Source of the DNA: an uncultured Lachnospiraceae bacterium
Lineage (GTDB): Bacteria; Bacillota; Clostridia; Lachnospirales; Lachnospiraceae
Reading direction: 5' to 3'
DNA length: 64,000 bases
Assembly (NCBI GenBank): GCA_902766735.1
Contig: CACXEU010000007.1
Span: 62,509 to 126,508 of the forward strand
Part shown: piece after piece, positions 1,759 through 15,128 of the stretch
Numbering within the stretch: position 1 is the first letter of the stretch
How the letters are laid out: each line of letters begins with the position of its first letter
The notes under the pieces: model-generated
The model's database searches: none
What the model was told of the DNA's origin: nothing
Seen by the model: only the letters and a program-made list of their open reading frames with translations
Translations under genes and position numbers: made by a program

Positions 1759-3615
1759 ATGTTATACCCAATCGAAAACAAAGTCAGGGAAGTGAAAAAC
1801 TTAAGTGGAATCTGGAAGTTCAAAGTGGATGAGAAAAATGTAGGAATGGAAGAAAAGTGGTTTGAAGCACCGTTGGAAGAGTGGATTCCCATGGCGGTTC
1901 CTGCTAGTTATAATGATTTGCTGACAGATCCAAAAGTGAAAGAACATGTAGGATATGTCTGGTACGAAAAGGACTTCATCATTCCAGACAGTTGGGATGG
2001 AAAACGAATGGTATTACGTTTCGGAAGTGCTACTCATCATGCTTATGTTTACGTGGACGGAAAGCAAGTGGTATATCATAAAGGAGGATTCCTTCCTTTT
2101 GAAGCCGATATCACGGAAATGATGGAAAAAAGTAATTTGGAAAACCATCGATTAACGGTAGCGTTAAGCAATGTCCTGGATTGGACCTGCATTCCTTGTG
2201 GAGAAGTGATTTCGAAAGAAGGAGATGGTTATCCGGAAGGGTTTCATTTTCAGGAAACCTATTTTGATTTTTACAATTATTCCGGAATTCACAGACCGGT
2301 AAAAATATATACGACACCGAAAACGTATATTGAAGATATTGTCATCAAGACAATCGTGGAAGGACTAAACAGTAATTGGACGGAAGGACCATTATTGACG
2401 ATTGAAGATTATAAGAAAGTGGAACGAGCTGCATTGCCTGCAGCAGACAGTGCTGTTGTAAAGGTAAAGATTCAGTCGACGGATAGTGTGAAGGCTGTGA
2501 TGATTTTGGATGAAACAGAAGCCGTGATTGCTATGGAAACCTGTTTTCGTTGTACTGAGACAGAGGGGAAAAGAAATTATGAGGCGGAATTGAAACTGGA
2601 AAATCCGAATCTTTGGAATCCGGGAGCTGCCTACTTATATACATTGCGGGTTGAAGGGGAGAGTGATGTTTATTCAGAAACCTTCGGAATCCGTGAAATT
2701 GAAACCACAGAGAACCGCTTTCTGATTAATGGACGACCATTTTATTTCAAAGGTTTTGGTCGTCATGAAGATAGTGAAATTCATGGAAAAGGTTTGGATG
2801 ATGCATTAAACATTCGTGATTTTAATCTGTTGAAATGGCTTGGAGCCAATTCTTTTCGAACTTCTCATTATCCGTATTCAGAAGAACATATGATGTTGGC
2901 GGATCGGGAAGGTTTTGTCGTAATTGATGAAGTACCGGCAGTGGGAATGTGTTTCTGGGATGGACAACAGGTGTTTGGTGGAAATCGTGTAAATGATGAG
3001 ACGCTGAAACATCACCTGGACACATTGCAGGAAGTTTACGAAAGAGATAAGAATCATCCCAGTGTAGTGATGTGGAGTGTAGCCAATGAGGCAGCGACTC
3101 ATGAAGAAGGGGCAGTTCCGTATTTTGAAAAAGTCATTCACAGGATGAAGGAATTGGATGACACCAGACCGGTTACCATGGTTCACACCACTGGTGCAGA
3201 TGGAGACAAGGTTAGCCAGTGGCTGGATGTAATTTGTGTCAATCGCTATTATGCATGGTACACGGATCACAGTCACTTAGAGGTGATTGGACTTCAGTTG
3301 GAAAAAGAAATGAGACGATGGAATGAAAAATATCATAAGCCGATTATTCTCAGTGAGTATGGTGCGGATACCATCGCAGGATATCATAAATTACCGGCAG
3401 TTGCATTCACGGAAGAATTCCAGTGCGAATATTTGAATGAATTTCATAAGAAGTTTGACCAGTTGGATTTTATGATTGGAGAACATGTGTGGGCTTATTG
3501 TGATTTCCAGACGAAGCAGGGATTGAATCGTGTGGATGGAAACAAGAAAGGTGTGTTTACACGAAACAGACAGCCGAAGATGGCGGCATATGAATTGAGA
3601 AAACGATGGAAATAG
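1759..3615 (+). CDS. uidA: GH2 beta-glucuronidase
   Basis: 618 aa, collinear with E. coli GUS as I recall it. Acid/base region WSVANEA, nucleophile region LSEYGAD, and the glucuronide-specific N-K motif NKKGVFTRNRQPK near the C-terminus. RBS aaaaggag upstream. Confidence 0.9.
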   Translation: MLYPIENKVREVKNLSGIWKFKVDEKNVGMEEKWFEAPLEEWIPMAVPASYNDLLTDPKVKEHVGYVWYEKDFIIPDSWDGKRMVLRFGSATHHAYVYVDGKQVVYHKGGFLPFEADITEMMEKSNLENHRLTVALSNVLDWTCIPCGEVISKEGDGYPEGFHFQETYFDFYNYSGIHRPVKIYTTPKTYIEDIVIKTIVEGLNSNWTEGPLLTIEDYKKVERAALPAADSAVVKVKIQSTDSVKAVMILDETEAVIAMETCFRCTETEGKRNYEAELKLENPNLWNPGAAYLYTLRVEGESDVYSETFGIREIETTENRFLINGRPFYFKGFGRHEDSEIHGKGLDDALNIRDFNLLKWLGANSFRTSHYPYSEEHMMLADREGFVVIDEVPAVGMCFWDGQQVFGGNRVNDETLKHHLDTLQEVYERDKNHPSVVMWSVANEAATHEEGAVPYFEKVIHRMKELDDTRPVTMVHTTGADGDKVSQWLDVICVNRYYAWYTDHSHLEVIGLQLEKEMRRWNEKYHKPIILSEYGADTIAGYHKLPAVAFTEEFQCEYLNEFHKKFDQLDFMIGEHVWAYCDFQTKQGLNRVDGNKKGVFTRNRQPKMAAYELRKRWK

Positions 3616-3740
3616 CACGAGACTGTACCCCGTGCCGTATTAGCACGAGATAACATCCCGTGCCGTATTAGCACGAGACAGCATCCCGTGCTGCAATAGC
3701 ACGAGACAGCATCCCATGCCGTATTAGCACGAGACAGCTC
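3614..3740. repeat. 28-bp head-to-tail tandem repeat array, 4 full units plus a partial fifth
   Basis: Units at 3614, 3642, 3670, 3698 and a partial one at 3726. Consensus is agcacgagaNNNNNcccgtgccgtatt. Each unit holds a short internal inverted repeat (gcacg...cgtgc), and the central 5 nt vary between units. The array starts at the last base of the GUS stop codon. Confidence 0.85.
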
Positions 3741-3782
3741 GATTTCGCTTCGCTTCATCTCGCTGATCAAGCGTCGCTTGAT

Positions 3783-3843
3783 CTTTCAAAATAGAAGGCT
3801 CGAGGGATACATAAATGTTCCCTCGAGCCTTCTATTTTGAAAG
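3783..3843. repeat. Perfect 25-bp-stem inverted repeat (hairpin), 11-nt loop
   Basis: ctttcaaaatagaaggctcgaggga (3783-3807) is the exact reverse complement of tccctcgagccttctattttgaaag (3819-3843). It is preceded by a 9-bp hairpin gatcaagcg/cgcttgatc (3765-3783). It may act as a terminator, but there is no clean U-tract. Confidence 0.8.
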
Positions 3844-3944
3844 TCATTCTCGTGCTCATGACAAAAATGTTCAATAAAACTGATTAAATTTGTCACTATG
3901 ATTCTTTGAGGGCATATGTTATAGTACAGATATCCTAAAAAGAA

Positions 3945-4262
3945 TAAGGCGATGAAGAGAAGTAGTAGTTATGGATTGGCTTTCAGAGAGTTGTCGGTTG
4001 GTGCGAGACAATAAGCATGAAATAACGAACTCGTCTCGGAGCTTCCGGCTGAAACTGATTGCATCAGCAAACAGCGTGTAGGCTTGGACGGTTTTCACCG
4101 TTATATGAAGTGATGGTTAAACATCCATGAGTGCTTACCATAAATAAGAAGATCACTAAGGTGTGCATAATTCTTATGATATTATGGTTTGAATCAGAGT
4201 GGTACCGCGTAGTAAAGCTTACGTCTCTGTGTTTTTGTATGAAAACGCAGAGGCGTTTTTCG
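3945..4262 (+). promoter_or_regulatory. T-box leader (tRNA-sensing riboswitch), probable Leu specifier CUC, with terminator
   Basis: Stem I start gcgatgaagagaagta, AG bulge cagagag, distal loop ggtgcga, and a specifier-loop candidate gaa-CTC-g (CTC at 4030-4032). Conserved T-box sequence agagtggtaccgcg at 4196-4209. Terminator acgtctctgtgtttt/aaaacgcagaggcgt (4221-4256) plus T-run. A possible extended -10 tgttatagt lies at 3917-3925. Located directly upstream of leuA. Confidence 0.85.
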
Positions 4263-4310
4263 TTTACAAAGTAAAGAATTAGAGTTAAAATTATAGGTTG
4301 AAAAGGAGAA

Positions 4311-6305
4311 TTGACTATGATGAATTATAAGAAGTATCAAAGACAGTATTTTATGCCTCCTACACCTACCTACGATTGGGTAAAGAAGGAGTATATTACA
4401 GAAGCACCAATTTGGTGTAGTGTAGATTTGCGTGATGGTAATCAGGCATTAATTGAACCGATGAGTTTAGAAGAAAAATTAGAATTCTTTCAGATGTTAG
4501 TGGACATTGGCTTCAAGGAAATTGAAGTTGGATTCCCGGCAGCATCTGAGACGGAATATAAATTTATGAGAGCCTTAATTGAAAGAGATATGATTCCTGA
4601 TGATGTGACCGTTCAGGTTTTAACTCAGGCGAGAGAACATATCATTAAGAAAACATTCGAAGCAGTAAAGGGCGCAAAGCACGCGGTAATTCATCTTTAT
4701 AATTCTACATCTGTAGCACAGCGTGAACAGGTATTTAAGAAGAGTAAAGAAGAAGTTATGAAGATTGCTGTGGACGGAGCAGAATTATTAAAGAAACTTG
4801 CAGAGGAAGTAGAAGGAAACTTCTCCTTTGAATATAGTCCGGAAAGTTTCCCGGGAACAGAAGTTGATTACGCATTAGATGTTTGTAATGCAGTATTGGA
4901 TGTATGGCAGCCAAAAAAAGAAAACAAGGTAATCATTAACATTCCTGCCACTGTGGAAAATGCAATGCCACATGTATTTGCAACACAGGTAGAATATATG
5001 CATAAGAACTTAAAGTATCGTGATGCGGTAACAATTTCCGTACATCCACACAATGACAGAGGCTGTGGTGTGGCAACAGCAGAATTAAGTATTCTTGCAG
5101 GAGCAGACAGAATTGAAGGTACTTTATTTGGAAATGGGGAACGAACAGGTAACGTTGACATTATTACCTTAGCAATGAACATGTTCTCTCATGGTGTTGA
5201 TCCGAAGCTTGACTTCAGTAACATGCCTCAGATTTGTGAATTATATGAACGTGTGACAAGAATGCAGGTAAGTCCACGTCAGCCGTATGCAGGTGATTTA
5301 GTGTTTACTGCCTTCTCCGGCTCTCATCAGGATGCCATTGCAAAGGGTATGGCATGCAGAGAAAAGAATCCGGATGGAATATGGACGGTTCCATATCTTC
5401 CAATTGATCCGGTTGATGTAGGAAGAACTTACGATTCTGATGTAATCAGAATTAACAGCCAGTCCGGTAAGGGTGGCGTAAGCTATATCTTAAAGCAGAA
5501 TTTCGGTTTATCATTACCGGAAAAGATGAGAGAAAATGTCGGATATACTGTTAAGGATGTATCCGATAAAGAACATAAGGAATTATCTCCGGAATGGGTA
5601 CATCAGATTTTCGAGGATAAGTATGTCAACGACAACTCCGTATTCAGTGTTCCGGAAGCACATTTTGAGCAGAAGGATGGCATTGTTGCTGAAGTGACAA
5701 TTGCACGCAAGGATGAAGCAAGAGTCGTTAAGAGCACAGGTAATGGACGTTTAGATGCAGTGAGCAACGCATTTAAGCAGTTCTTTGACATCAGCTATGA
5801 ATTATCCGTTTATGAAGAACATTCACTTTCCAGAGGTTCTTCATCCAAGGCAGTTGCCTATGTGGGAATCAGCTGTAATGGAACCATGTTCTGGGGCGTT
5901 GGAATTGATGCGGATATTATCAAGGCATCCATTCAGGCGTTAACGGTTGCTGTGAATCAGTATTTAACATCCATTGGAAAAAATGGAGAACAGGATGAAA
6001 GGTTAACGGAAATCAAAAATTTTATTAACACCAACTACCTTACGGTGACTTTAGACGAACTTTCAGAGGAATTCCACTTATCTAAGCCGTATCTGTCAAA
6101 GTATATTAAGGCAAAGTCAGGAAAAACCTTTGGTGAGTTGGTGAAAAATGTGCGAATGAAGAAAGCCAGAACACTGCTGAAAGGAAGCAGTATGACGGTG
6201 GAGGCTATTTCTGATGCGGTAGGGTATCAGGATGTGGAACATTTTATCCGGTTATTCAAGAAGAAATACGGAATGACACCGGTTCAGTTTAGAAATCAAA
6301 GATAG
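4311..6305 (+). CDS. leuA: 2-isopropylmalate synthase (long form) fused to a C-terminal AraC/XylS-type double-HTH DNA-binding domain
   Basis: DRE-TIM motifs DLRDGNQ and [11 protein letters not shown], plus a LeuA dimer/regulatory region ending about ...[16 protein letters not shown]. Residues ~565-664 (nt ~5998-6302) read as a complete AraC HTH: [35 protein letters not shown]...[32 protein letters not shown]. The frame is continuous with no stop. Confidence 0.85.
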
Positions 6306-6319
6306 AAGGAGGAAGAACT

Positions 6320-7282
6320 ATGAAGAGAGTCAAACTATTGGCAGCGGTATTAATGGTTGTTTTGGTGTTTACAGGTTGCATGAAGGAAGATGCAAAGATT
6401 ATAGTTTCGGAAGATGGCTATGTAACTATGGGGGTAACCGTTGATATTAAGAAAGAAACCTGTGACAAAATTCTGAAAAAAATAAAAGCAAATGGAGATG
6501 AAATATCCAAATCAATTGCAGAAAGTTTTACAAAGGATATGAAGGTTGTCACAATTGATGGCGTAGAATTTTACGAAGCAAAGGAAAGTGAAAAGAAAAC
6601 CTACAAAGAATTCATGAGCACTAATAGTGATGATGGAACTGATGTGTATGTCACAAAAGATACTATCTATATTAACGGTAAGGCTAAGAAAACTTCTATG
6701 ACCGGCGATGTTAATTCTAAGGAGATGGAAGCTATGCTGAAGGCTAGTGGCGTGGATGCCAGTGTGATTAATGAAGCAAAAGATATTAAGCTAACCTATT
6801 CTGTTGAATTTGATAAAAATATTGAAAGTACGAACGGAATCATAGATAAAGATAATCCGAAGAAGGCTAATTATAGCATAACAGAAGGTATCAATGCTTC
6901 ATCTATCACGATTTTTGCGACAACAAATAAGAGCGTTACATTAAAAGACGTTCAGAATTATATTAAGAAAAATCGGACTATTGCAAAACCGATACTTAAA
7001 AAAGTTAAAGCAGATAAATTAAAGAAAAAGACCAAAAAGGCTTCAATTACTGTGAAGTTTAAAAAGGTTAATGGAGCAGAAAAGTATAAGATTGAATATG
7101 CAACAAATAAAAAATTTAAAAACTCAAGGGTAAAAATAACCTCAAAAACAACTTATAAGATTAAAAGACTGAAAAGAGGGAAACGTTATTTTGTCAGAGT
7201 GTATGCAATGAAGAAAAATGATATGGGAAAAGATGTAATCAGTAAGGCAAGCAATAAAAAATCAGTTAAAATAAAGAAATAA
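6320..7282 (+). CDS. Lipoprotein with C-terminal lysine-rich FN3-like module
   Basis: RBS aggaggaag. Signal peptide with lipobox FTGC. C-terminal ITVKFKKVNGAEKYKIEYATNKKFKNSRVKITSKTTYKIKRLKRGKRYFVRVYAMKK matches the FN3-like pattern that recurs elsewhere in the window. Confidence 0.7.
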   Translation: MKRVKLLAAVLMVVLVFTGCMKEDAKIIVSEDGYVTMGVTVDIKKETCDKILKKIKANGDEISKSIAESFTKDMKVVTIDGVEFYEAKESEKKTYKEFMSTNSDDGTDVYVTKDTIYINGKAKKTSMTGDVNSKEMEAMLKASGVDASVINEAKDIKLTYSVEFDKNIESTNGIIDKDNPKKANYSITEGINASSITIFATTNKSVTLKDVQNYIKKNRTIAKPILKKVKADKLKKKTKKASITVKFKKVNGAEKYKIEYATNKKFKNSRVKITSKTTYKIKRLKRGKRYFVRVYAMKKNDMGKDVISKASNKKSVKIKK

Positions 7283-7339: not shown

Positions 7340-7500
7340 CTCTTATTCAGAGTGGTGGAGGTACAAGGACCAGTGAAACCACGGCAACCCCCGACAACTG
7401 TTAGGAAGGTGCCAACCTGAGCGAGAAATCGATCAATAAGAGGGCTTAATACCTTGAAACTAAGTCCGCAAGAAATTGCGGACTTTTCTATTTTTATTTT
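7340..7500 (+). promoter_or_regulatory. SAM-I (S-box) riboswitch with terminator expression platform
   Basis: ctcttattcagagtggtggaggtacaaggaccagtgaaaccacggcaacc...ggtgccaacctgagcga...aataagaggg matches the S-box consensus (P1 cttat/ataag, GGTGGAGG, GGCAACC, GGTGC-AA). Terminator agtccgcaagaaattgcggact (7463-7484) plus T-run. Immediately upstream of metK. Confidence 0.9.
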
Positions 7501-7514
7501 TAAAGGAGAAAACA

Positions 7515-8702
7515 ATGGAAAAGAGATTATTTACTTCAGAATCAGTTACCGAAGGACATCCGGATAAAATCTGTGATCAGATTTCCGATGCCATTTTAGA
7601 TGAATTAATGAGACAGGACCCAAACAGCCGTGTTGCCTGCGAGACTGCGATTACCACAGGTCTCGTATTAGTAATGGGTGAAGTTACCACAAAGGGATAT
7701 GTGGATATTCAGAAAGTTGTGAGAGATACTATCCGAGAAATTGGTTATGATAGAGCAAAGTACGGATTTGACTGTGATACCTGTGGTGTCATCACTGCAT
7801 TGGATGAACAGTCAGCAGATATTGCCATGGGTGTTGATAAGGCTTTAGAAGCAAAAGAACATACCATGAGTGAAGATGAAATTGAGGCAATTGGCGCAGG
7901 CGACCAGGGAATGATGTTCGGTTATGCAACAGATGAAACAGAAGAATTCATGCCATATCCGATTTCCTTGGCTCATAAGTTAACAAGAAAATTGACAGAA
8001 GTTCGTAAGAACGGGACGTTGGATTATTTACGTCCGGACGGGAAGAGTCAGGTGACTGTGGAATATGATGAAGACGGAAAGCCGGCTAGAGTGGATGCAG
8101 TTGTTATTTCCACACAGCATAATCCGGAAGTGACACAGGAACAGATTCATGAAGATATTAGAAAATATGTCATTGATGCGGTGATTCCACAGGAAATGGT
8201 TGATGAACATACAAAGTACTTCATTAATCCAACAGGTCGATTTGTTATTGGTGGTCCACAGGGTGACTCAGGATTGACAGGACGTAAAATCATTGTAGAT
8301 ACATACGGTGGATATGCAAGACATGGTGGTGGAGCTTTTTCAGGAAAGGACTGTACGAAGGTAGACCGTTCTGCAGCGTATGCAGCAAGATATGTAGCAA
8401 AGAATATTGTTGCAGCAGGAATTGCAAAGAAGTGTGAAATTCAGCTTTCTTATGCCATTGGTGTAGCTCAGCCAACTTCTATTATGGTGGATACTTTTGG
8501 AACCGGATTAATTTCTGATGAAAAACTGGTGGAAATTATTCGTGAAAACTTTGATCTTCGTCCGGCAGGAATTATTAAGATGCTTAACCTGAGAAGACCA
8601 ATTTATAAGCAGACTGCTGCATACGGACATTTCGGAAGAAGTGATGTTTCTCTGCCATGGGAAGCAACCGATAAAGTGGATGTATTAAAGAGTTATTTAT
8701 AA
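7515..8702 (+). CDS. metK: S-adenosylmethionine synthetase
   Basis: Start chosen at [29 protein letters not shown] (RBS aaaggag upstream). The ORF-track start at 7476 lies inside the riboswitch terminator. Conserved GHPDK and GGGAFSGKD motifs. Confidence 0.95.
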
Positions 8703-8810: not shown

Positions 8811-9659
8811 TTACTCCGAAGGAGTAATGGATAGTAATTTCAGCAGATAAGGAATTTCTGCTTCGAAATTAACTGCATAAGTAACATGTTCCGGATCCTT
8901 GTAGGTGTTTTTGATACATGCGCAGGTGAAATCTGCAGCAACCTTTAAGGCTTCCTCAATGGAAAGGCCTTTGGTTAATGCTCCGGAAAACGTACTGGAG
9001 AATACATCTCCGGTACCGTGAGAACGATAAGGAATTTTTTCAGTGCCATAATGGAAGAATTCCTTATTTTTTTTATGGTATCCTAAAAATCCTAAGGTAC
9101 CGTCTGAGAAGGAAACACCGGTAATGACCGCAGTATCACATCCTAAGGCAACCAGTTTTTTCAAAAGTTCCTGAAGGAATTCAATGGAAGCATCTTCTCC
9201 AGGATATGGTTCTCCAAGCATTAAGCATGCTTCGGAAATATTTGGAAGGATGATGTTCGCCTTGGCACAGAGTTTTTTCATTTCCTTGGCAAAGTGACTG
9301 TCGAAACCGGGATACAGGACTCCATCTTCTGCCATGGCAGGATCAACCACAATATAGTTGTCTTTGCTGCCAAAAGTGTCAAAGAAATCCGATACAATTT
9401 TAATCTGGCGTTGGGAACCCAGGTAACCGGTATAAATGGTTCCGAATTCAAATCCCTGACTCTTCCAATGATTTTTTATGGGTTCCAAGTCATCTGTTAA
9501 ATCCCGAAAAGTAAAATTTGGAAACTGGGTATGGGTGGAGAGAACCGCTGTTGGAACAATGGCGGTTTCAATGCCCATGGAAGAGATGATCGGTAACGCT
9601 ACAGTTAAAGAACATTTTCCAATGCAGGAAATATCCTGAATGGTCATTAATCGTTTCAT
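8811..9659 (-). CDS. pdxK: Pyridoxal/pyridoxamine kinase (ribokinase superfamily)
   Basis: 282 aa. N-terminus MTIQDISCIGKCSLTVALPIISSMGIE and C-terminal anion-hole motif GTGDVFSS are typical of PdxK/PdxY-type kinases. Divergent from a MocR/PdxR-type regulator. Confidence 0.8.
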   Translation of the reverse strand: MKRLMTIQDISCIGKCSLTVALPIISSMGIETAIVPTAVLSTHTQFPNFTFRDLTDDLEPIKNHWKSQGFEFGTIYTGYLGSQRQIKIVSDFFDTFGSKDNYIVVDPAMAEDGVLYPGFDSHFAKEMKKLCAKANIILPNISEACLMLGEPYPGEDASIEFLQELLKKLVALGCDTAVITGVSFSDGTLGFLGYHKKNKEFFHYGTEKIPYRSHGTGDVFSSTFSGALTKGLSIEEALKVAADFTCACIKNTYKDPEHVTYAVNFEAEIPYLLKLLSITPSE

Positions 9660-9812: not shown

Positions 9813-11198
9813 ATGATTTATGATTTGGAAAAGCGAGGAACTCATCCCATTTATGAATATTTATATATGTGTATCAAGAACGACATTTTAGAAGGGAAGA
9901 TTGCACCGGGAGAGAAGCTCCCATCGAAACGATCCTTTGCAAAAAGTCAGGGGATCAGTGTTATTACCGTAGAAAATGCCTATGCCCAGCTGTTAACAGA
10001 AGGTTATATTTACTCGGAAGAAAAACGCGGTTTTTTTGCAGGCGACATGGGTGGAAAATATGTTCAGGGAAAAAAGAAACGAATTCGGGTGGAGTCAAAA
10101 AAACAGGAAAACTGGCTGGTAGACTTTAAGTCCAATCATATCCGGTATGATAATTTCCCATTCTCCACCTGGTCTAAGGTGATGCGACAGACACTACTGG
10201 ATCAGGAAAACTCTTTTTTACAAAGTCCGGAGAGTCAGGGAGTGGCGCCCCTTCGCCAATACATTTCCATGCATTTGGAAAAATACCGGGGGTTGAGTGT
10301 GAACCCGAATCATATTGTTGTCGGTGCAGGAACCGAATATCTGTATGGGCTGATTGTGCAGATTCTGGGACACAGTTCCATGATTGCGGTGGAAGATCCG
10401 GGACATAAGAAAATCGGAAAAGTATATGAAAGTAATGGGGTTCGATGCATTCGAGTTCCGGTAGACCAGGATGGACTGGATTTGAGCGCGTTACGGGGAA
10501 GTAATGCTTCCGCCGTTCATATTTCGCCATCTCATCACTTCCCTACAGGTAGGGTTATGCCGGCAACCAGAAGACATAAATTGATTCAATGGGCAAGAGA
10601 ACACGACAGCTATATTATTGAAGATGATTATGACAGTGAATTCCGCTTTAGTGGAAGACCTATTCCCACATTGGCTAGTATTGATGAAGACCGGGTTATC
10701 TATATGAATACATTTTCCAAGACGTTAGCGCCTTCCATTCGAATTGCTTACATGGTGCTACCGGAGAAACTGATGAAGGTCTTTCGGATGCGACTGGATT
10801 TTTATTCCAGCACAGTCAGTGGATTCGAACAATACACCTTAGCAAACTTCATTCGCTTAGGGTATTATGAACGGCACATTAATCGTATGAGAAATTATTA
10901 CCGAGAGTACCGAAGCAGGATTTTGAAAGCAATTAAAGAATCGTCCTTGTTTGAAAAGGTTACCATTGAAGAGGAAAATGCAGGACTTCATTTTATCCTG
11001 CATATCAACCGGGAAATGGATGACGAGGCTTATGTAAGGAAATTAAAAAAGAACAAGATAAATATTTCTACTGTGGCAGAATACTGTTATAATGATAACG
11101 AAAACTTTCAGCACAAGTTTATTATTAATTATTCAGCTGTGCAGGAAGAGGATTTGAAAAAAGCCCTGGAAATCATGAATCAGGCTTTGGAGGAATAG
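9813..11198 (+). CDS. pdxR: MocR/PdxR-family regulator (GntR wHTH fused to a fold-type-I aminotransferase-like domain)
   Basis: N-terminal wHTH LPSKRSFAKSQGISVITVENAYAQLLTEGYI. C-terminal PLP-lysine region NTFSKTLAPSIRIAY. The divergent arrangement with pdxK supports a PdxR-like role. Confidence 0.8.
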   Translation: MIYDLEKRGTHPIYEYLYMCIKNDILEGKIAPGEKLPSKRSFAKSQGISVITVENAYAQLLTEGYIYSEEKRGFFAGDMGGKYVQGKKKRIRVESKKQENWLVDFKSNHIRYDNFPFSTWSKVMRQTLLDQENSFLQSPESQGVAPLRQYISMHLEKYRGLSVNPNHIVVGAGTEYLYGLIVQILGHSSMIAVEDPGHKKIGKVYESNGVRCIRVPVDQDGLDLSALRGSNASAVHISPSHHFPTGRVMPATRRHKLIQWAREHDSYIIEDDYDSEFRFSGRPIPTLASIDEDRVIYMNTFSKTLAPSIRIAYMVLPEKLMKVFRMRLDFYSSTVSGFEQYTLANFIRLGYYERHINRMRNYYREYRSRILKAIKESSLFEKVTIEEENAGLHFILHINREMDDEAYVRKLKKNKINISTVAEYCYNDNENFQHKFIINYSAVQEEDLKKALEIMNQALEE

Positions 11199-12574: not shown

Positions 12575-14071
12575 ATGGAAGAGAAGAGAATAAATATCAA
12601 TGAAATGCCAAAGTGGTTTCGAGTACTGCTATTATTAACACCGCTGATTGGTATAGTTCTGATCAAGACGACATTGGATAATGATTTTTACTTTTTATAT
12701 GCTACGGGAGAATACATTGTGAATCATGGATTTCCTCATCGGGATTTTCTATCTATGCATTCTTCTATGGAAATTATTGTACAGCAGTGGCTTAGCGCCG
12801 TGATCTATTATTATGTCTACAAGTTGTTTGGCAAGGTAGGAGTATTATTGTTACTTTATATTTGCTATGTTATTATCAACTATTTAAGTCTTAAACTGAG
12901 CAGGATGATTACAAACAATATGTTTGTATCCCTGATTTGCGTGCTGGTGGCTGATGTCTGGATTGCGGCAATGTTTATTGTGTCCAGACCGCAGATGTTT
13001 ACATACATCATTATGTTGTTCGAAATGTATCTTCTGGAAAAATTTGTTCAGGAAAAGAAAAACAGATATCTGTGTGTGTTACCGGTCTTATCCCTGTTAT
13101 TGATTAATTTACATGCCTCTATGTGGGCTATGTTTTTTGTGTATGCAATGCCATATTTTGTGAATGCCCTGCCGATTAAAATCGGAGCATTCAAACAAAC
13201 GCCATGTTGTGATTACAAAAAACTTCTTGCAGCAGGAATTGCCAGTGTTTTTCCGGGATTTCTGAATCCTTATGGAATTAAGGCGATGTTATACATTTTT
13301 TCATCCTTTGGGGTTCCGGAAATTAATGACATGATTAACGAAATGAAAGCAACCAGTTTTGAAAATGCCGCAGGAAAAATGCTATTTTTCCTGATCGGTG
13401 TGATGGCTGTGGTGGCTTTAATTCGAAAAAAGCAAAACCGTTATGAAACCCGTTTTGTTTTATTGTTTGGGGGAAGTCTGGTAATGGCCTTGATGAATTA
13501 CAAGTCCCATGCCTATTTTTACATTTTCGCATCGATTTGTTTCTCCTATATGATTCAGGATACCCAATTAGTATTAAATGTATCTGAGGGTGAGAGAACG
13601 CCGGCGGAAAAGAAGCGGTTGGCTCTGTTAGCAGGATTGTTTTCGATTACTGTTGTGATAGCTGCCATGGCAATTATCTCAACACCACAGAAGAAAAAGA
13701 AATCTGAGGACATAGTAAGATATGATCAATTGGATGATGTCATAAAACTGATTCCTAAGAGTGACGACGTGGTATTATATGGAAATTTTGTCTGCGGACA
13801 ATATTTGGAATTTCACGGATATCATCCATATATTGACGGGAGAGCCGAACTGTTTTTAAAAGCAAACAATAAGGAATATGACTATTATATTGAATATTAC
13901 AAATTGAAAAAGGGAGAACTGAACTGCAAGAAGTTTTTAGAACGCTATCAGTTCAATTATCTGGTGGTGGAAAAAGAAAGAGATGCATGCTTGTATAATT
14001 ATTTAATCAATGATGACTCCTACCAGCAGGTATATAAATCTAAAACAGTGAACCTCTTTACCAAACAGTAG
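12575..14071 (+). CDS. Polytopic membrane protein, possibly a GT-C-type glycosyltransferase
   Basis: 498 aa with RBS aggagga. Many hydrophobic helices, an acidic DNDFYF motif after TM1, and a soluble C-terminal ~120 aa. The family call is weak. Confidence 0.55.
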   Translation: MEEKRININEMPKWFRVLLLLTPLIGIVLIKTTLDNDFYFLYATGEYIVNHGFPHRDFLSMHSSMEIIVQQWLSAVIYYYVYKLFGKVGVLLLLYICYVIINYLSLKLSRMITNNMFVSLICVLVADVWIAAMFIVSRPQMFTYIIMLFEMYLLEKFVQEKKNRYLCVLPVLSLLLINLHASMWAMFFVYAMPYFVNALPIKIGAFKQTPCCDYKKLLAAGIASVFPGFLNPYGIKAMLYIFSSFGVPEINDMINEMKATSFENAAGKMLFFLIGVMAVVALIRKKQNRYETRFVLLFGGSLVMALMNYKSHAYFYIFASICFSYMIQDTQLVLNVSEGERTPAEKKRLALLAGLFSITVVIAAMAIISTPQKKKKSEDIVRYDQLDDVIKLIPKSDDVVLYGNFVCGQYLEFHGYHPYIDGRAELFLKANNKEYDYYIEYYKLKKGELNCKKFLERYQFNYLVVEKERDACLYNYLINDDSYQQVYKSKTVNLFTKQ

Positions 14072-14144
14072 GAAAAGGGAATGTCATATATTTTACTTTC
14101 AACTCATAGTCTAGAATAGAAATTGACGCGAAGTGGGTGAAAGT

Positions 14145-15128
14145 ATGAATGAAAAAGCAGTAAGTGTATTGGAACAATATGAATTGGAACCGCTGAAAAT
14201 TTTTAAACAGCGAGGAAACTATGGGTGCAATACAGCAGAGGGTAAATACCTCTTATTAGAATATGACTTCAGTGAGGAAAAGCTAGTCAGTTTGTTTCGG
14301 GTACAGGATTATCTGGAACAAAAAGGGATTAAAACAGAAAAACTGGTGTTTAATCGGGAAGGACATCTGATTAGCGTGGGTGAGGATGGCTTCGGGTATG
14401 TCCTGAAAAGAATTTATGATGTGGAAGAGTGCGATATTCATGACCGGGAGCATGTAAAGATCGCAGCAAAAAATCTGGCAAGGTTTCATAAGGCCACCTA
14501 CAATATGGAAGATGATTTTAATGGGAAAGTACGAATTTATCCGGAAAAAAATCTGCTTGAGGCTTTTCAAAAACACAACAGGGAACTTGTGAATATTAGG
14601 AACTTTATTGAGAAGCGAAGAAACAAGAATTTTTTTGAACGATATCTGCAACACATTATTGAAGGGTATTACCGGCAGGGACAGAAAACCGTGGCACTTT
14701 TAGAACAATCTACATATCAGGAACTGTATGAGGAATCCTGTGAAAGAAAACAATTAATTCACGGAAATTACAATCATCATGCCCTGGCCTTTGAAAAGCA
14801 ACAACCGGTTTTGGTGAATCTGACGAAAGTCTATTATGGGCCGCAAATTCATGATGTCTATGACTTTCTGCGGAAAGTTTTGGAAAAGAATGCATGGAAA
14901 CCAAATCTGGGTCATGAAGTCATTTGCTGGTATGACACAGTAAACCCACTTCAGGATGCGGATAAGGAGATTTTGAAATTGTTGCTGTCGTATCCGGAAA
15001 AATTCTGGAAAATCGTGAATTATTATTACAATTCTAATAAGGCATGGTATTCCGATAAAAACGAAGAAAAACTGAAATCTTTTCAGGAACAGGAAGAACT
15101 GAGATGGTGCTTTATCCATTCTCTTTGA
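14145..15128 (+). CDS. CotS/aminoglycoside-phosphotransferase-fold protein (spore-coat kinase-like)
   Basis: Overall CotS-like layout (VLEQYELEP...; ...DVYDFLRKVLEK). ATG at 14145 is preferred over the GTG at 14133. The catalytic-loop position reads HGNYNHHA rather than the expected H-x-D-x4-N. Confidence 0.6.
   Translation: MNEKAVSVLEQYELEPLKIFKQRGNYGCNTAEGKYLLLEYDFSEEKLVSLFRVQDYLEQKGIKTEKLVFNREGHLISVGEDGFGYVLKRIYDVEECDIHDREHVKIAAKNLARFHKATYNMEDDFNGKVRIYPEKNLLEAFQKHNRELVNIRNFIEKRRNKNFFERYLQHIIEGYYRQGQKTVALLEQSTYQELYEESCERKQLIHGNYNHHALAFEKQQPVLVNLTKVYYGPQIHDVYDFLRKVLEKNAWKPNLGHEVICWYDTVNPLQDADKEILKLLLSYPEKFWKIVNYYYNSNKAWYSDKNEEKLKSFQEQEELRWCFIHSL

Follow-up and report, generated by a model that had tools for sequence, protein, structure and literature searches.

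Fusion of 2-isopropylmalate synthase to an AraC-type DNA-binding domain, with a candidate operator upstream of the fusion gene, in Lachnospiraceae and other bacteria

In the trigger enzymes PutA, BirA and NadR, a metabolic enzyme and a DNA-binding domain reside in one polypeptide: PutA combines a ribbon-helix-helix domain with proline dehydrogenase, and BirA a winged helix-turn-helix (wHTH) with biotin ligase. The archaeal trigger enzyme RbkR consists of riboflavin kinase and a wHTH domain (PMC5397151). The DNA described here, a stretch of 64,000 nucleotides (the window) from an uncultured Lachnospiraceae bacterium (contig CACXEU010000007.1, positions 62,509 to 126,508), encodes a 2-isopropylmalate synthase (LeuA) fused to an AraC-type DNA-binding domain. 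Upstream of the fusion gene lie a candidate operator, designated O1, and a leucine-specific T-box leader (Leu T-box). In PutA, BirA, NadR and RbkR, the state of the enzyme sets binding to genes of its own pathway, including its own gene, and the fusion may be of the same kind. It differs from these proteins in the C-terminal position and AraC fold of its DNA-binding domain, and in the reaction catalyzed, a committed and feedback-inhibited step of amino-acid synthesis. The four known proteins are mainly repressors, whereas the layout of the fusion locus suggests activation, with a T-box stacked on it in about 40% of the species.

Class II activators of the AraC/XylS family, such as AraC at araI1-I2, XylS at Pm, RhaS and MelR, carry a C-terminal domain of about 100 amino acids with two helix-turn-helix (HTH) motifs, preceded by a dimerizing ligand-binding module and a flexible linker. 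The fusion shares this arrangement, and the candidate repeats of O1 are about 21-22 bp apart, the proximal one abutting or overlapping a weak -35 box, as is usual for these activators. The sensor of the fusion, however, would be a whole enzyme of 550 amino acids with intact catalytic motifs and an allosteric domain, rather than a cupin or a periplasmic-binding-protein-like module. Its apparent regulon is its own gene, and its effector would be the end product of the pathway instead of a catabolic substrate. Overall, the fusion appears to resemble both a DNA-binding trigger enzyme (PutA, BirA, RbkR) and a class II AraC activator.

An enzyme fold also serves as the effector and dimerization domain of the MocR/GabR/PdxR regulators, widespread in Firmicutes, in which a GntR-type wHTH is joined to an aminotransferase fold. 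These are generally not pathway enzymes and their catalysis is lost or altered, whereas the fusion has invariant catalytic motifs and a Leu T-box of the biosynthetic type. In Ada/AdaA, an AraC domain is linked to a methyltransferase, the chemical state of which switches activation; unlike the fusion, a metabolic enzyme with a reversible allosteric ligand, Ada is a suicide DNA-repair protein that methylates itself irreversibly.

Mycobacterium tuberculosis LeuA (MtLeuA, Rv3710; structures 1sr9 and 3fig) and the unfused LeuA of Lachnospiraceae have the same barrel, subdomains and regulatory domain as the fusion, which is about 50% identical to MtLeuA, and many of them have a Leu T-box. Canonical LeuA stops at ...AVN(R/K), and its gene has a consensus -35 box and no O1, while the fusion adds about 110 amino acids. 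Between the fused and unfused types, identity is only about 50% in the regulatory domain, against 75-84% in the rest of the protein. In yeast, Leu3p couples the output of the LeuA step, alpha-isopropylmalate, to transcription of the leucine pathway, but it is a separate Zn-cluster factor sensing the LeuA product; the fusion would sense and bind DNA itself.

The fusion protein and its distribution

The fusion is encoded by an open reading frame at 4311-6305 on the forward strand, a single frame with no internal stops, as the first-pass annotation had read it. The start codon was assigned to ATG 4317 rather than TTG 4311, since an identical 662-aa protein is present in public databases, homologues align from that methionine, and the putative ribosome-binding site GGAGA (4305-4309) is located 7 nt upstream. 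The coding sequence (4317-6305) thus comprises 662 codons and a stop.

The catalytic part (4407-5495) consists of an HMGL-like TIM barrel (residues 31-308; Pfam PF00682, 245 bits) and the post-catalytic subdomain IPMS_D2 (residues 327-393, Pfam). It is followed by the LeuA_dimer domain (residues 423-550; 5583-5966; PF08502, 83 bits), the leucine-binding module responsible for allosteric control and dimerization. The NCBIfam model for 2-isopropylmalate synthase, NF002991, matches residues 4-548 with 817.4 bits (cut-off 455), and the stricter equivalog TIGR00970 scores 677.5 bits, slightly under its cut-off of 697.4. MtLeuA (1sr9) is about 50% identical to the protein over residues 26-519 and aligns again at residues 523-548, ending at ...AVNR. 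The catalytic motifs (R-D of VDLRDGNQ, H-x-H) are aligned with R80/D81, H285/H287 and H379 of MtLeuA. Completeness of the catalytic and leucine-binding regions, claimed from the letters alone, is therefore borne out by the Pfam matches, the NF002991 score and the retained motifs.

Canonical LeuA ends at a position corresponding to residues 547-551 (...AVNQ) of the fusion, as seen in 1sr9 and in the nearest unfused relatives, proteins of 560-570 amino acids found in a library of 1.8 billion sequences; the last 110 or so residues are thus extra. They comprise an interdomain linker (residues ~551-560; 5967-5996), variable in sequence and nearly constant in length, and an AraC/XylS-type DNA-binding domain of seven helices with two HTH motifs (residues ~561-662; 5997-6302), recognized by Pfam, AlphaFold2 and Foldseek. 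The Pfam scores are 75.3 bits for HTH_18 (residues 582-661; cut-off 33.6) and 53.8 bits for HTH_AraC (cut-off 26.6). A short linker leading into a double-HTH domain of about 100 amino acids from nucleotide ~5998 had been predicted, and the folded domain indeed begins at residue ~561 (nucleotide ~5997).

An AlphaFold2 model was obtained for residues 345-662 from 121 sequences, with a mean predicted local distance difference test (pLDDT) score of 78.7. In it, the LeuA regulatory domain forms two beta-beta-beta-alpha units and closes with a long helix (534-552), followed by a short low-confidence linker (553-560), where pLDDT dips to about 65, and seven helices (561-660). In Foldseek searches, the regulatory part matched MtLeuA, including the leucine-bound structure 3fig, and the C-terminal part matched AraT-C (6swi), YesN-C (3lsg), GadX (3mkl), AraC (2k9s), the AdpA-DNA complex (3w6v), SoxS (7w5w) and MarA (1bl0), with template modelling scores, normalized to the target, of 0.7-0.9 for these AraC-type matches. 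The C-terminal domain is thus modelled as a canonical two-HTH DNA-binding domain. By sequence and fold, the product is a long-form LeuA that carries an AraC/XylS-type DNA-binding domain. Judging from the conserved motifs and the control by a Leu T-box, it is probably an active, leucine-inhibited 2-isopropylmalate synthase. The role of the second domain of AraC/XylS proteins, namely dimerization and effector binding, would fall to the LeuA regulatory domain or to the whole enzyme, an atypical partner for this family.

When the C-terminal 118 residues were searched against genomes representing one species each, at least 561 species genomes were found to encode a relative; the locus comparisons described below are based on the best 80 of these matches. 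At 78 of these 80 loci the fusion is uninterrupted, all 662 residues being covered by one in-frame tblastn alignment with 67-99% identity, and the remaining two are truncated by contig ends. The fusion-bearing taxa span at least three families and include isolates and complete genomes. Within Lachnospiraceae they are Eubacterium, Dorea, Coprococcus comes, Butyrivibrio, Roseburia, Agathobacter, Merdimonas and Schaedlerella; elsewhere the fusion was found in Sporomusa and Pelosinus (complete genomes), Clostridium chromiireducens and one metagenome-assembled genome (MAG) of Acutalibacteraceae. A protein search with the last 194 residues yielded 466 proteins, the best 120 of which all have the LeuA_dimer + HTH_18 architecture with 60-82% identity. 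Fusions of LeuA with HTH_18/HTH_AraC domains, which the first-pass annotation had proposed to look for in related genomes, are therefore common.

The full-length fusion proteins (n = 79) are 658-670 amino acids long. Mean pairwise identity among these 79 homologues falls from 0.82 in the catalytic part and 0.74 in the DNA-binding domain to 0.67 in the regulatory domain and 0.41 in the linker (computed over residues 551-566), which indicates strong purifying selection on the DNA-binding domain and a tighter constraint there than in the allosteric domain. The catalytic motifs, SGSHQDAI among them, are invariant, the allosteric leucine-binding loop shows 95-100% conservation, and both predicted recognition helices rank among the best-conserved stretches. 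Several independent assemblies and samples encode the 662-aa protein without a single difference. Together with the 78 fused species, this rules out a lost stop, a frameshift or a chimeric assembly at the junction, and the two-gene arrangement in close relatives that would have marked the junction as a local accident was not seen at these loci. The gene is a genuine, evolutionarily fixed fusion of LeuA with an AraC-type DNA-binding domain.

In public databases the protein and its fragments are named "2-isopropylmalate synthase" (NCBI, full length) or "helix-turn-helix domain-containing protein," and the fusion is not described. Full-text literature searches found no description of a LeuA-AraC fusion, in line with the first-pass annotation, which knew of none; one apparent match (PMC8027347) proved irrelevant.

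Several individual loci deserve mention. One MAG contains two fusion loci (L023 and L031, contigs CANOFO010000108 and CANOFO010000131), which could reflect paralogy or strain mixture; the pair is relevant to possible action of a fused copy in trans on another promoter. Locus L017 (CAVFAT010000035.1) comes from a bin labelled Bacteroidaceae, and its protein is 77% identical to those of Lachnospiraceae, so that the contig is probably mis-binned. On two metagenome contigs the fusion ORF turns into unrelated sequence, directly after ...AVNKIEEIQKYKK in L154 and midway through the first HTH, following ...LSKYIKEK, in L186. Either these assemblies are chimeric or the DNA-binding domain has been naturally disrupted at the two loci.

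Operator, promoter and leader of the fusion gene

The candidate operator O1 is a 40-bp element with two direct repeats 22 bp apart, located ahead of the fusion gene. In the window it occupies positions 3858-3897 (forward strand; position weight matrix score 40.6 bits), with the distal repeat ACAAAAATGTTCAA at 3861-3874 and the proximal repeat ATTAAATTTGTCAC, inside TGATTAAATTTGTCACT, at 3883-3896. The element was present, in a single copy and in constant orientation, at 74 of the 76 fusion loci with enough upstream sequence. The consensus of these 74 loci is A.ATTAAAATAAATCAA-tAAAAa-TGATTAAAtttaTCACT, and the 22-bp period of the direct repeat TTAAAAtaaATCAA / ATTAAAtttATCAC was the best of all direct offsets tested.

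The core promoter was predicted from columns 26-54 of the alignment of the 74 loci. In the window it extends over 3897-3925 on the forward strand and comprises a poor -35 box (TATGAT, 3897-3902), TG at 3917-3918 and the -10 box TATAGT (3920-3925), with a predicted transcription start near 3932. The distance from O1 to the TG-extended -10 box (TnTGnTAnnAT) is invariant across loci. Counted from the predicted -10 box, O1 spans about -70 to -35, and the proximal repeat ends at -36. The TG was found in 71 of the 74 fused promoters and a -10 box matching at least four of six positions also in 71, while in 73 the best -35 box agrees with TTGACA at no more than four of six positions. A scan with the strict sigma-70 consensus did not call the proposed promoter, which fits a -35-less model and is not evidence for it.

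O1 is the sole match of at least 12 bits on both strands of the window (0.05 hits in shuffled windows). Besides copies of the second element described below, the 914 kb scanned (the window and the 80 loci, both strands) contained no further site reaching 12 bits. An exact 18-base O1 pattern had 120 matches in metagenomes, 102 of them 112-1039 nt upstream of a fusion gene on the same strand; among the other 18, 13 were cut by contig ends and five appeared to be chance matches. With 102 of 107 evaluable matches, O1 thus appears to be essentially exclusive to the fusion gene, and neither scan gave evidence for a wider O1 regulon.

Two other assignments of this A/T-rich element were rejected. No CodY box was found near the promoter even with three mismatches allowed. 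In one clade the N6...TGAT/ATCAC part of O1 pairs into a GGAAAGTGAT/ATCACTTTCC hairpin with a T-run behind it, which could be taken for the terminator of the upstream gene. This reading is ruled out, since the conserved bases stay where no hairpin is possible and behind different upstream genes.

Downstream of the promoter the transcript carries the T-box leader noticed in the first-pass annotation. It was recognized by Rfam (RF00230) at 3943-4231 of the forward strand with 125.4 bits (gathering score 93; E 2e-27). The leader has a leucine specifier CUC at 4030-4032, read as GAA-CUC-G, the T-box sequence at about 4196-4209, and an intrinsic terminator, found by a terminator scan at about 4221-4256/4266, with a 16-pair stem and a T-run. 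CTC or CTG stands at the specifier position in every T-box-bearing relative. Whereas O1 is near-universal, no more than about 29 of 75 fusion loci (~40%) have the T-box. In the Negativicutes Sporomusa and Pelosinus (L025, L026, L030 and L034), the O1 promoter is located about 90-100 nt farther upstream of the T-box than in Lachnospiraceae.

A second, weaker O1-like copy, O2 (TTAAAAAaaGACAAtaAAATTGATgAtTATT), is located 73-75 bp downstream of O1, i.e., at a distance of seven helical turns. It covers about +1 to +40, comprising the predicted transcription start and the 5' untranslated region. O2 was found in about 30 of 46 T-box-less loci (for example, L056 3734-3773, L066 2944-2983 and L036 4184-4223) and in none of the 29 loci with a T-box.

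A populous sister clade has unfused LeuA. All 10 unfused leuA loci examined in this clade have a Leu T-box and none has O1, even at a lenient threshold, and the consensus -35 box TTGACA was present in all six unfused promoters read by eye. The O1 element and the missing -35 box therefore track the fused DNA-binding domain rather than leuA or the T-box.

Two metagenomic leuA genes are mosaics, L118 (5255-6919, with the motif on the forward strand) and L156 (5393-7054). They encode unfused proteins of 554 and 553 amino acids, respectively, each gene with a real stop codon and a terminator, and share synteny with fused orthologues. The first 400 residues are 83-84% identical to those of the syntenic fused proteins, whereas identity to the fused type drops to about 50% in the regulatory domains; in L118 this region instead shares 86-92% identity with the unfused type. 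Both genes thus have a fused-type promoter and 5' 1.2 kb, and an unfused-type 3' end without the HTH domain. This pattern indicates that the regulatory and DNA-binding domains were swapped as one block, twice independently, since the two genes belong to different synteny groups. It suggests that these two domains form a co-adapted module.

A possible mechanism and its rivals

Taken together, the conserved fusion and its matching upstream site make it most likely that the enzyme regulates its own synthesis. The proposition that the whole feedback-inhibited enzyme acts as the sensor and dimerization module of an AraC-family activator, with its own gene as the regulon, is about evenly balanced between true and false. 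In such a system one leucine site would set both catalysis and transcription initiation, and the T-box or O2 would provide a second checkpoint. The preferred specific model is an autoregulating trigger enzyme that binds O1 and activates transcription in a class II manner antagonized by leucine, with the T-box acting in series; it is advanced tentatively, its likelihood lying a little short of an even balance.

According to the preferred model, the enzyme dimer would display two DNA-binding domains, each of which takes one of the direct repeats of O1. As O1 is located directly upstream of the -35 position, the protein would autoregulate its own synthesis. The leucine-free enzyme would recruit RNA polymerase to a promoter with a TG-extended -10 box and no usable -35 box. 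The leucine-binding allosteric domain immediately precedes the linker, and leucine bound there, in the same event that feedback-inhibits catalysis, may weaken or re-orient the DNA-binding domains, ending activation. In the window, the Leu T-box would then impose a second, independent checkpoint on transcript elongation, responding to uncharged tRNA-Leu, while in T-box-less relatives repression is probably provided instead by O2. Direct repeats 22 bp apart and ending at -36 are the classic class II layout of AraC/XylS activators. Class II activation is favored by the dimeric regulatory domain, a distance of some two helical turns between the repeats, the proximal end at -36, the degenerate -35 box and the rigid spacing. 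The idea of a trigger enzyme, put forward in the first-pass annotation, has gained weight from a candidate operator that is conserved ahead of the protein's own gene and absent from unfused relatives; the readout of leucine or substrate as DNA binding we still infer, as we do binding to O1, the identity of leucine as the effector and the sign of regulation.

Several observations weigh against this model. The HTH-less mosaics L118 and L156 retain O1 (50 and 39 bits, respectively) and O2, and O1 in these genes is either a relic or a site bound in trans by a paralogue or another factor. O1 also holds an inverted symmetry, ATCA-N7-TGAT, which makes a palindrome-binding factor possible. A comparison of DNA-binding domain divergence with operator score was uninformative (partial r = 0.12, p = 0.32), no covariation being detected beyond general phylogeny. 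A TG-extended -10 box can function without a -35 box, so that the promoter does not demand activation. In the window itself, the distal O1 repeat has lost its 5' part to the end of a lineage-specific 247-bp insertion (3624-3870, unstranded) that L001, a relative with 93% identity, does not have; the proximal repeat, the -10 box and the T-box are intact. The O1 layout matches tandem direct repeats beside the -35 position and is conserved and gene-specific, and two mosaics keep it without the HTH domain.

The main rival to activation is the opposite sign of regulation, with the leucine-bound enzyme repressing its own promoter via O1 (and O2) and leucine acting as a co-repressor, as BirA and PutA do on their own operons. 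The proximal repeat reaches the -35 position, where a bound protein could occlude sigma region 4, the TG-extended -10 box of 71 of the 74 promoters could make them constitutive without an activator, and about 30 of 46 T-box-less loci have O2 seven helical turns away from O1, at a place typical of repressor sites. In addition, the known DNA-binding trigger enzymes are for the most part repressors. Repression is nevertheless regarded as unlikely, although a serious contender, because the fused promoters combine two hallmarks of dependence on an activator, namely a fixed spacing between O1 and the -10 box and a -35 box that is systematically lost just where O1 occurs, and most AraC/XylS members with tandem repeats abutting the -35 box are activators. 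In another rival reading the fused domain does bind DNA, but O1 is read by a separately encoded factor and the fusion would regulate distant genes, such as those of ilv/leu or transport. The good O1 and O2 sites of the two HTH-less mosaics, the partial inverted symmetry of O1 and the lack of specific covariation between domain and operator all point this way, and the O1 scan covered about 12 kb per genome. Such a factor is distinctly improbable given that O1 is practically limited to the fusion gene (102 of 107) and absent from unfused relatives, with no second site in 914 kb; an unlinked factor with a single target that tracks the fused domain is the less parsimonious assumption.

The AraC-like domain might also no longer bind DNA and instead serve the enzyme structurally or allosterically, for example by aiding its oligomerization or solubility or by modulating its feedback inhibition. 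The L118 and L156 mosaics evidently still have a working enzyme although the domain is gone, but the recognition helices are highly conserved, the model is closest to DNA-bound members of the family, and a gene-specific operator-like element co-occurs with the domain; this role is accordingly given very little weight. Least of all is to be expected from an artefact, that is, a lost stop, a frameshift or a chimeric assembly joining leuA to an araC-type gene, the probability of which is practically negligible. Stand-alone LeuA_dimer + HTH proteins of 184-193 amino acids, some entries for which lie on long contigs, at first resembled separate genes; they proved to be artefacts of N runs in scaffolds that split the gene, and the independent assemblies and fused species noted above argue against an artefact.

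Genomic surroundings and significance

The 247-bp insertion in the window lies between a gene of a glycoside hydrolase family 2 (GH2) glycosidase and the leuA operator, adjoining O1. Tandem Repeats Finder revealed an array of 4.5 copies of a 28-nt unit (TAGCACGAGACAGCATCCCGTGCCGTAT) at 3613-3738, and an inverted-repeat search revealed a hairpin with a perfect 25-bp stem within the insertion (3783-3807 / 3819-3843). The same insertion is present in the independent samples L205 and L207, and no further copies were found in the window or in about 200 loci compared. It is a candidate terminator cassette or small mobile element.

The neighbours of the fusion gene in the window are unrelated to it, comprising genes of a flotillin, the GH2 glycosidase, a lipoprotein with an fn3 domain, and metK; no leu or ilv genes are located near the fusion in the window. 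Among the loci compared there is no conserved partner gene beside the fusion, its neighbours varying by lineage (ScpA/B-DacB, SSF symporter-mgsA, guaA, metK and others), so that the DNA-binding domain has no constant partner other than its own promoter.

The gene at 6320-7282, located 14 nt past the fusion stop codon, encodes a lipoprotein-like protein of 320 amino acids with a weak fn3 domain. It has its own ribosome-binding site, no terminator separates it from the fusion gene, and the two are probably co-transcribed. This gene is wholly absent from L001, where metK directly follows the fusion. In the window metK (7476-8702), coding for S-adenosylmethionine synthetase, is preceded by a SAM (S-box) riboswitch (7340-7442; 75.7 bits), an ordinary arrangement.

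Farther downstream, a gene of the pyridoxal/phosphomethylpyrimidine kinase family (8811-9659, reverse strand) is divergent from a gene for a MocR-type regulator (9813-11198, forward strand), composed of a GntR wHTH and a class I/II aminotransferase fold, in a PdxR-like layout. The latter is a second fusion of an enzyme fold with a transcription factor in the window, of an already known kind. For the products of two sizeable ORFs, at 12575-14071 (498 aa) and 14133-15128 (331 aa), Pfam gave no match at E <= 1e-5.

Enzyme-fold sensors as such are already known from the MocR regulators and Ada. What is new here is the combination of a complete allosteric enzyme of a committed step, an AraC DNA-binding domain and a single-gene operator. 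If the proposed mechanism is true, the fusion would be, to our knowledge, the first committed allosteric enzyme of an amino-acid pathway that is itself an AraC-type transcription factor. The C-terminal domain is encoded by at least 561 species genomes, and the database names miss the fusion, which constitutes an annotation gap.

The predicted operator is directly testable by experiment. The protein, the 40-bp operator and the promoter make up a compact candidate module for leucine-responsive expression in anaerobes, and the fusion would offer a one-protein, one-operator system for signalling from enzyme allostery to a DNA-binding domain. For the bacteria themselves, it would represent a new and very widespread class of AraC-type one-component regulators or trigger enzymes in gut Lachnospiraceae and some Negativicutes. 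It would explain how leuA is controlled without a T-box in abundant gut Lachnospiraceae such as Dorea, Coprococcus, Merdimonas, Butyrivibrio and others, and, where the T-box is present, sensing of free leucine by a protein and of tRNA-Leu charging by RNA would be layered on one gene.

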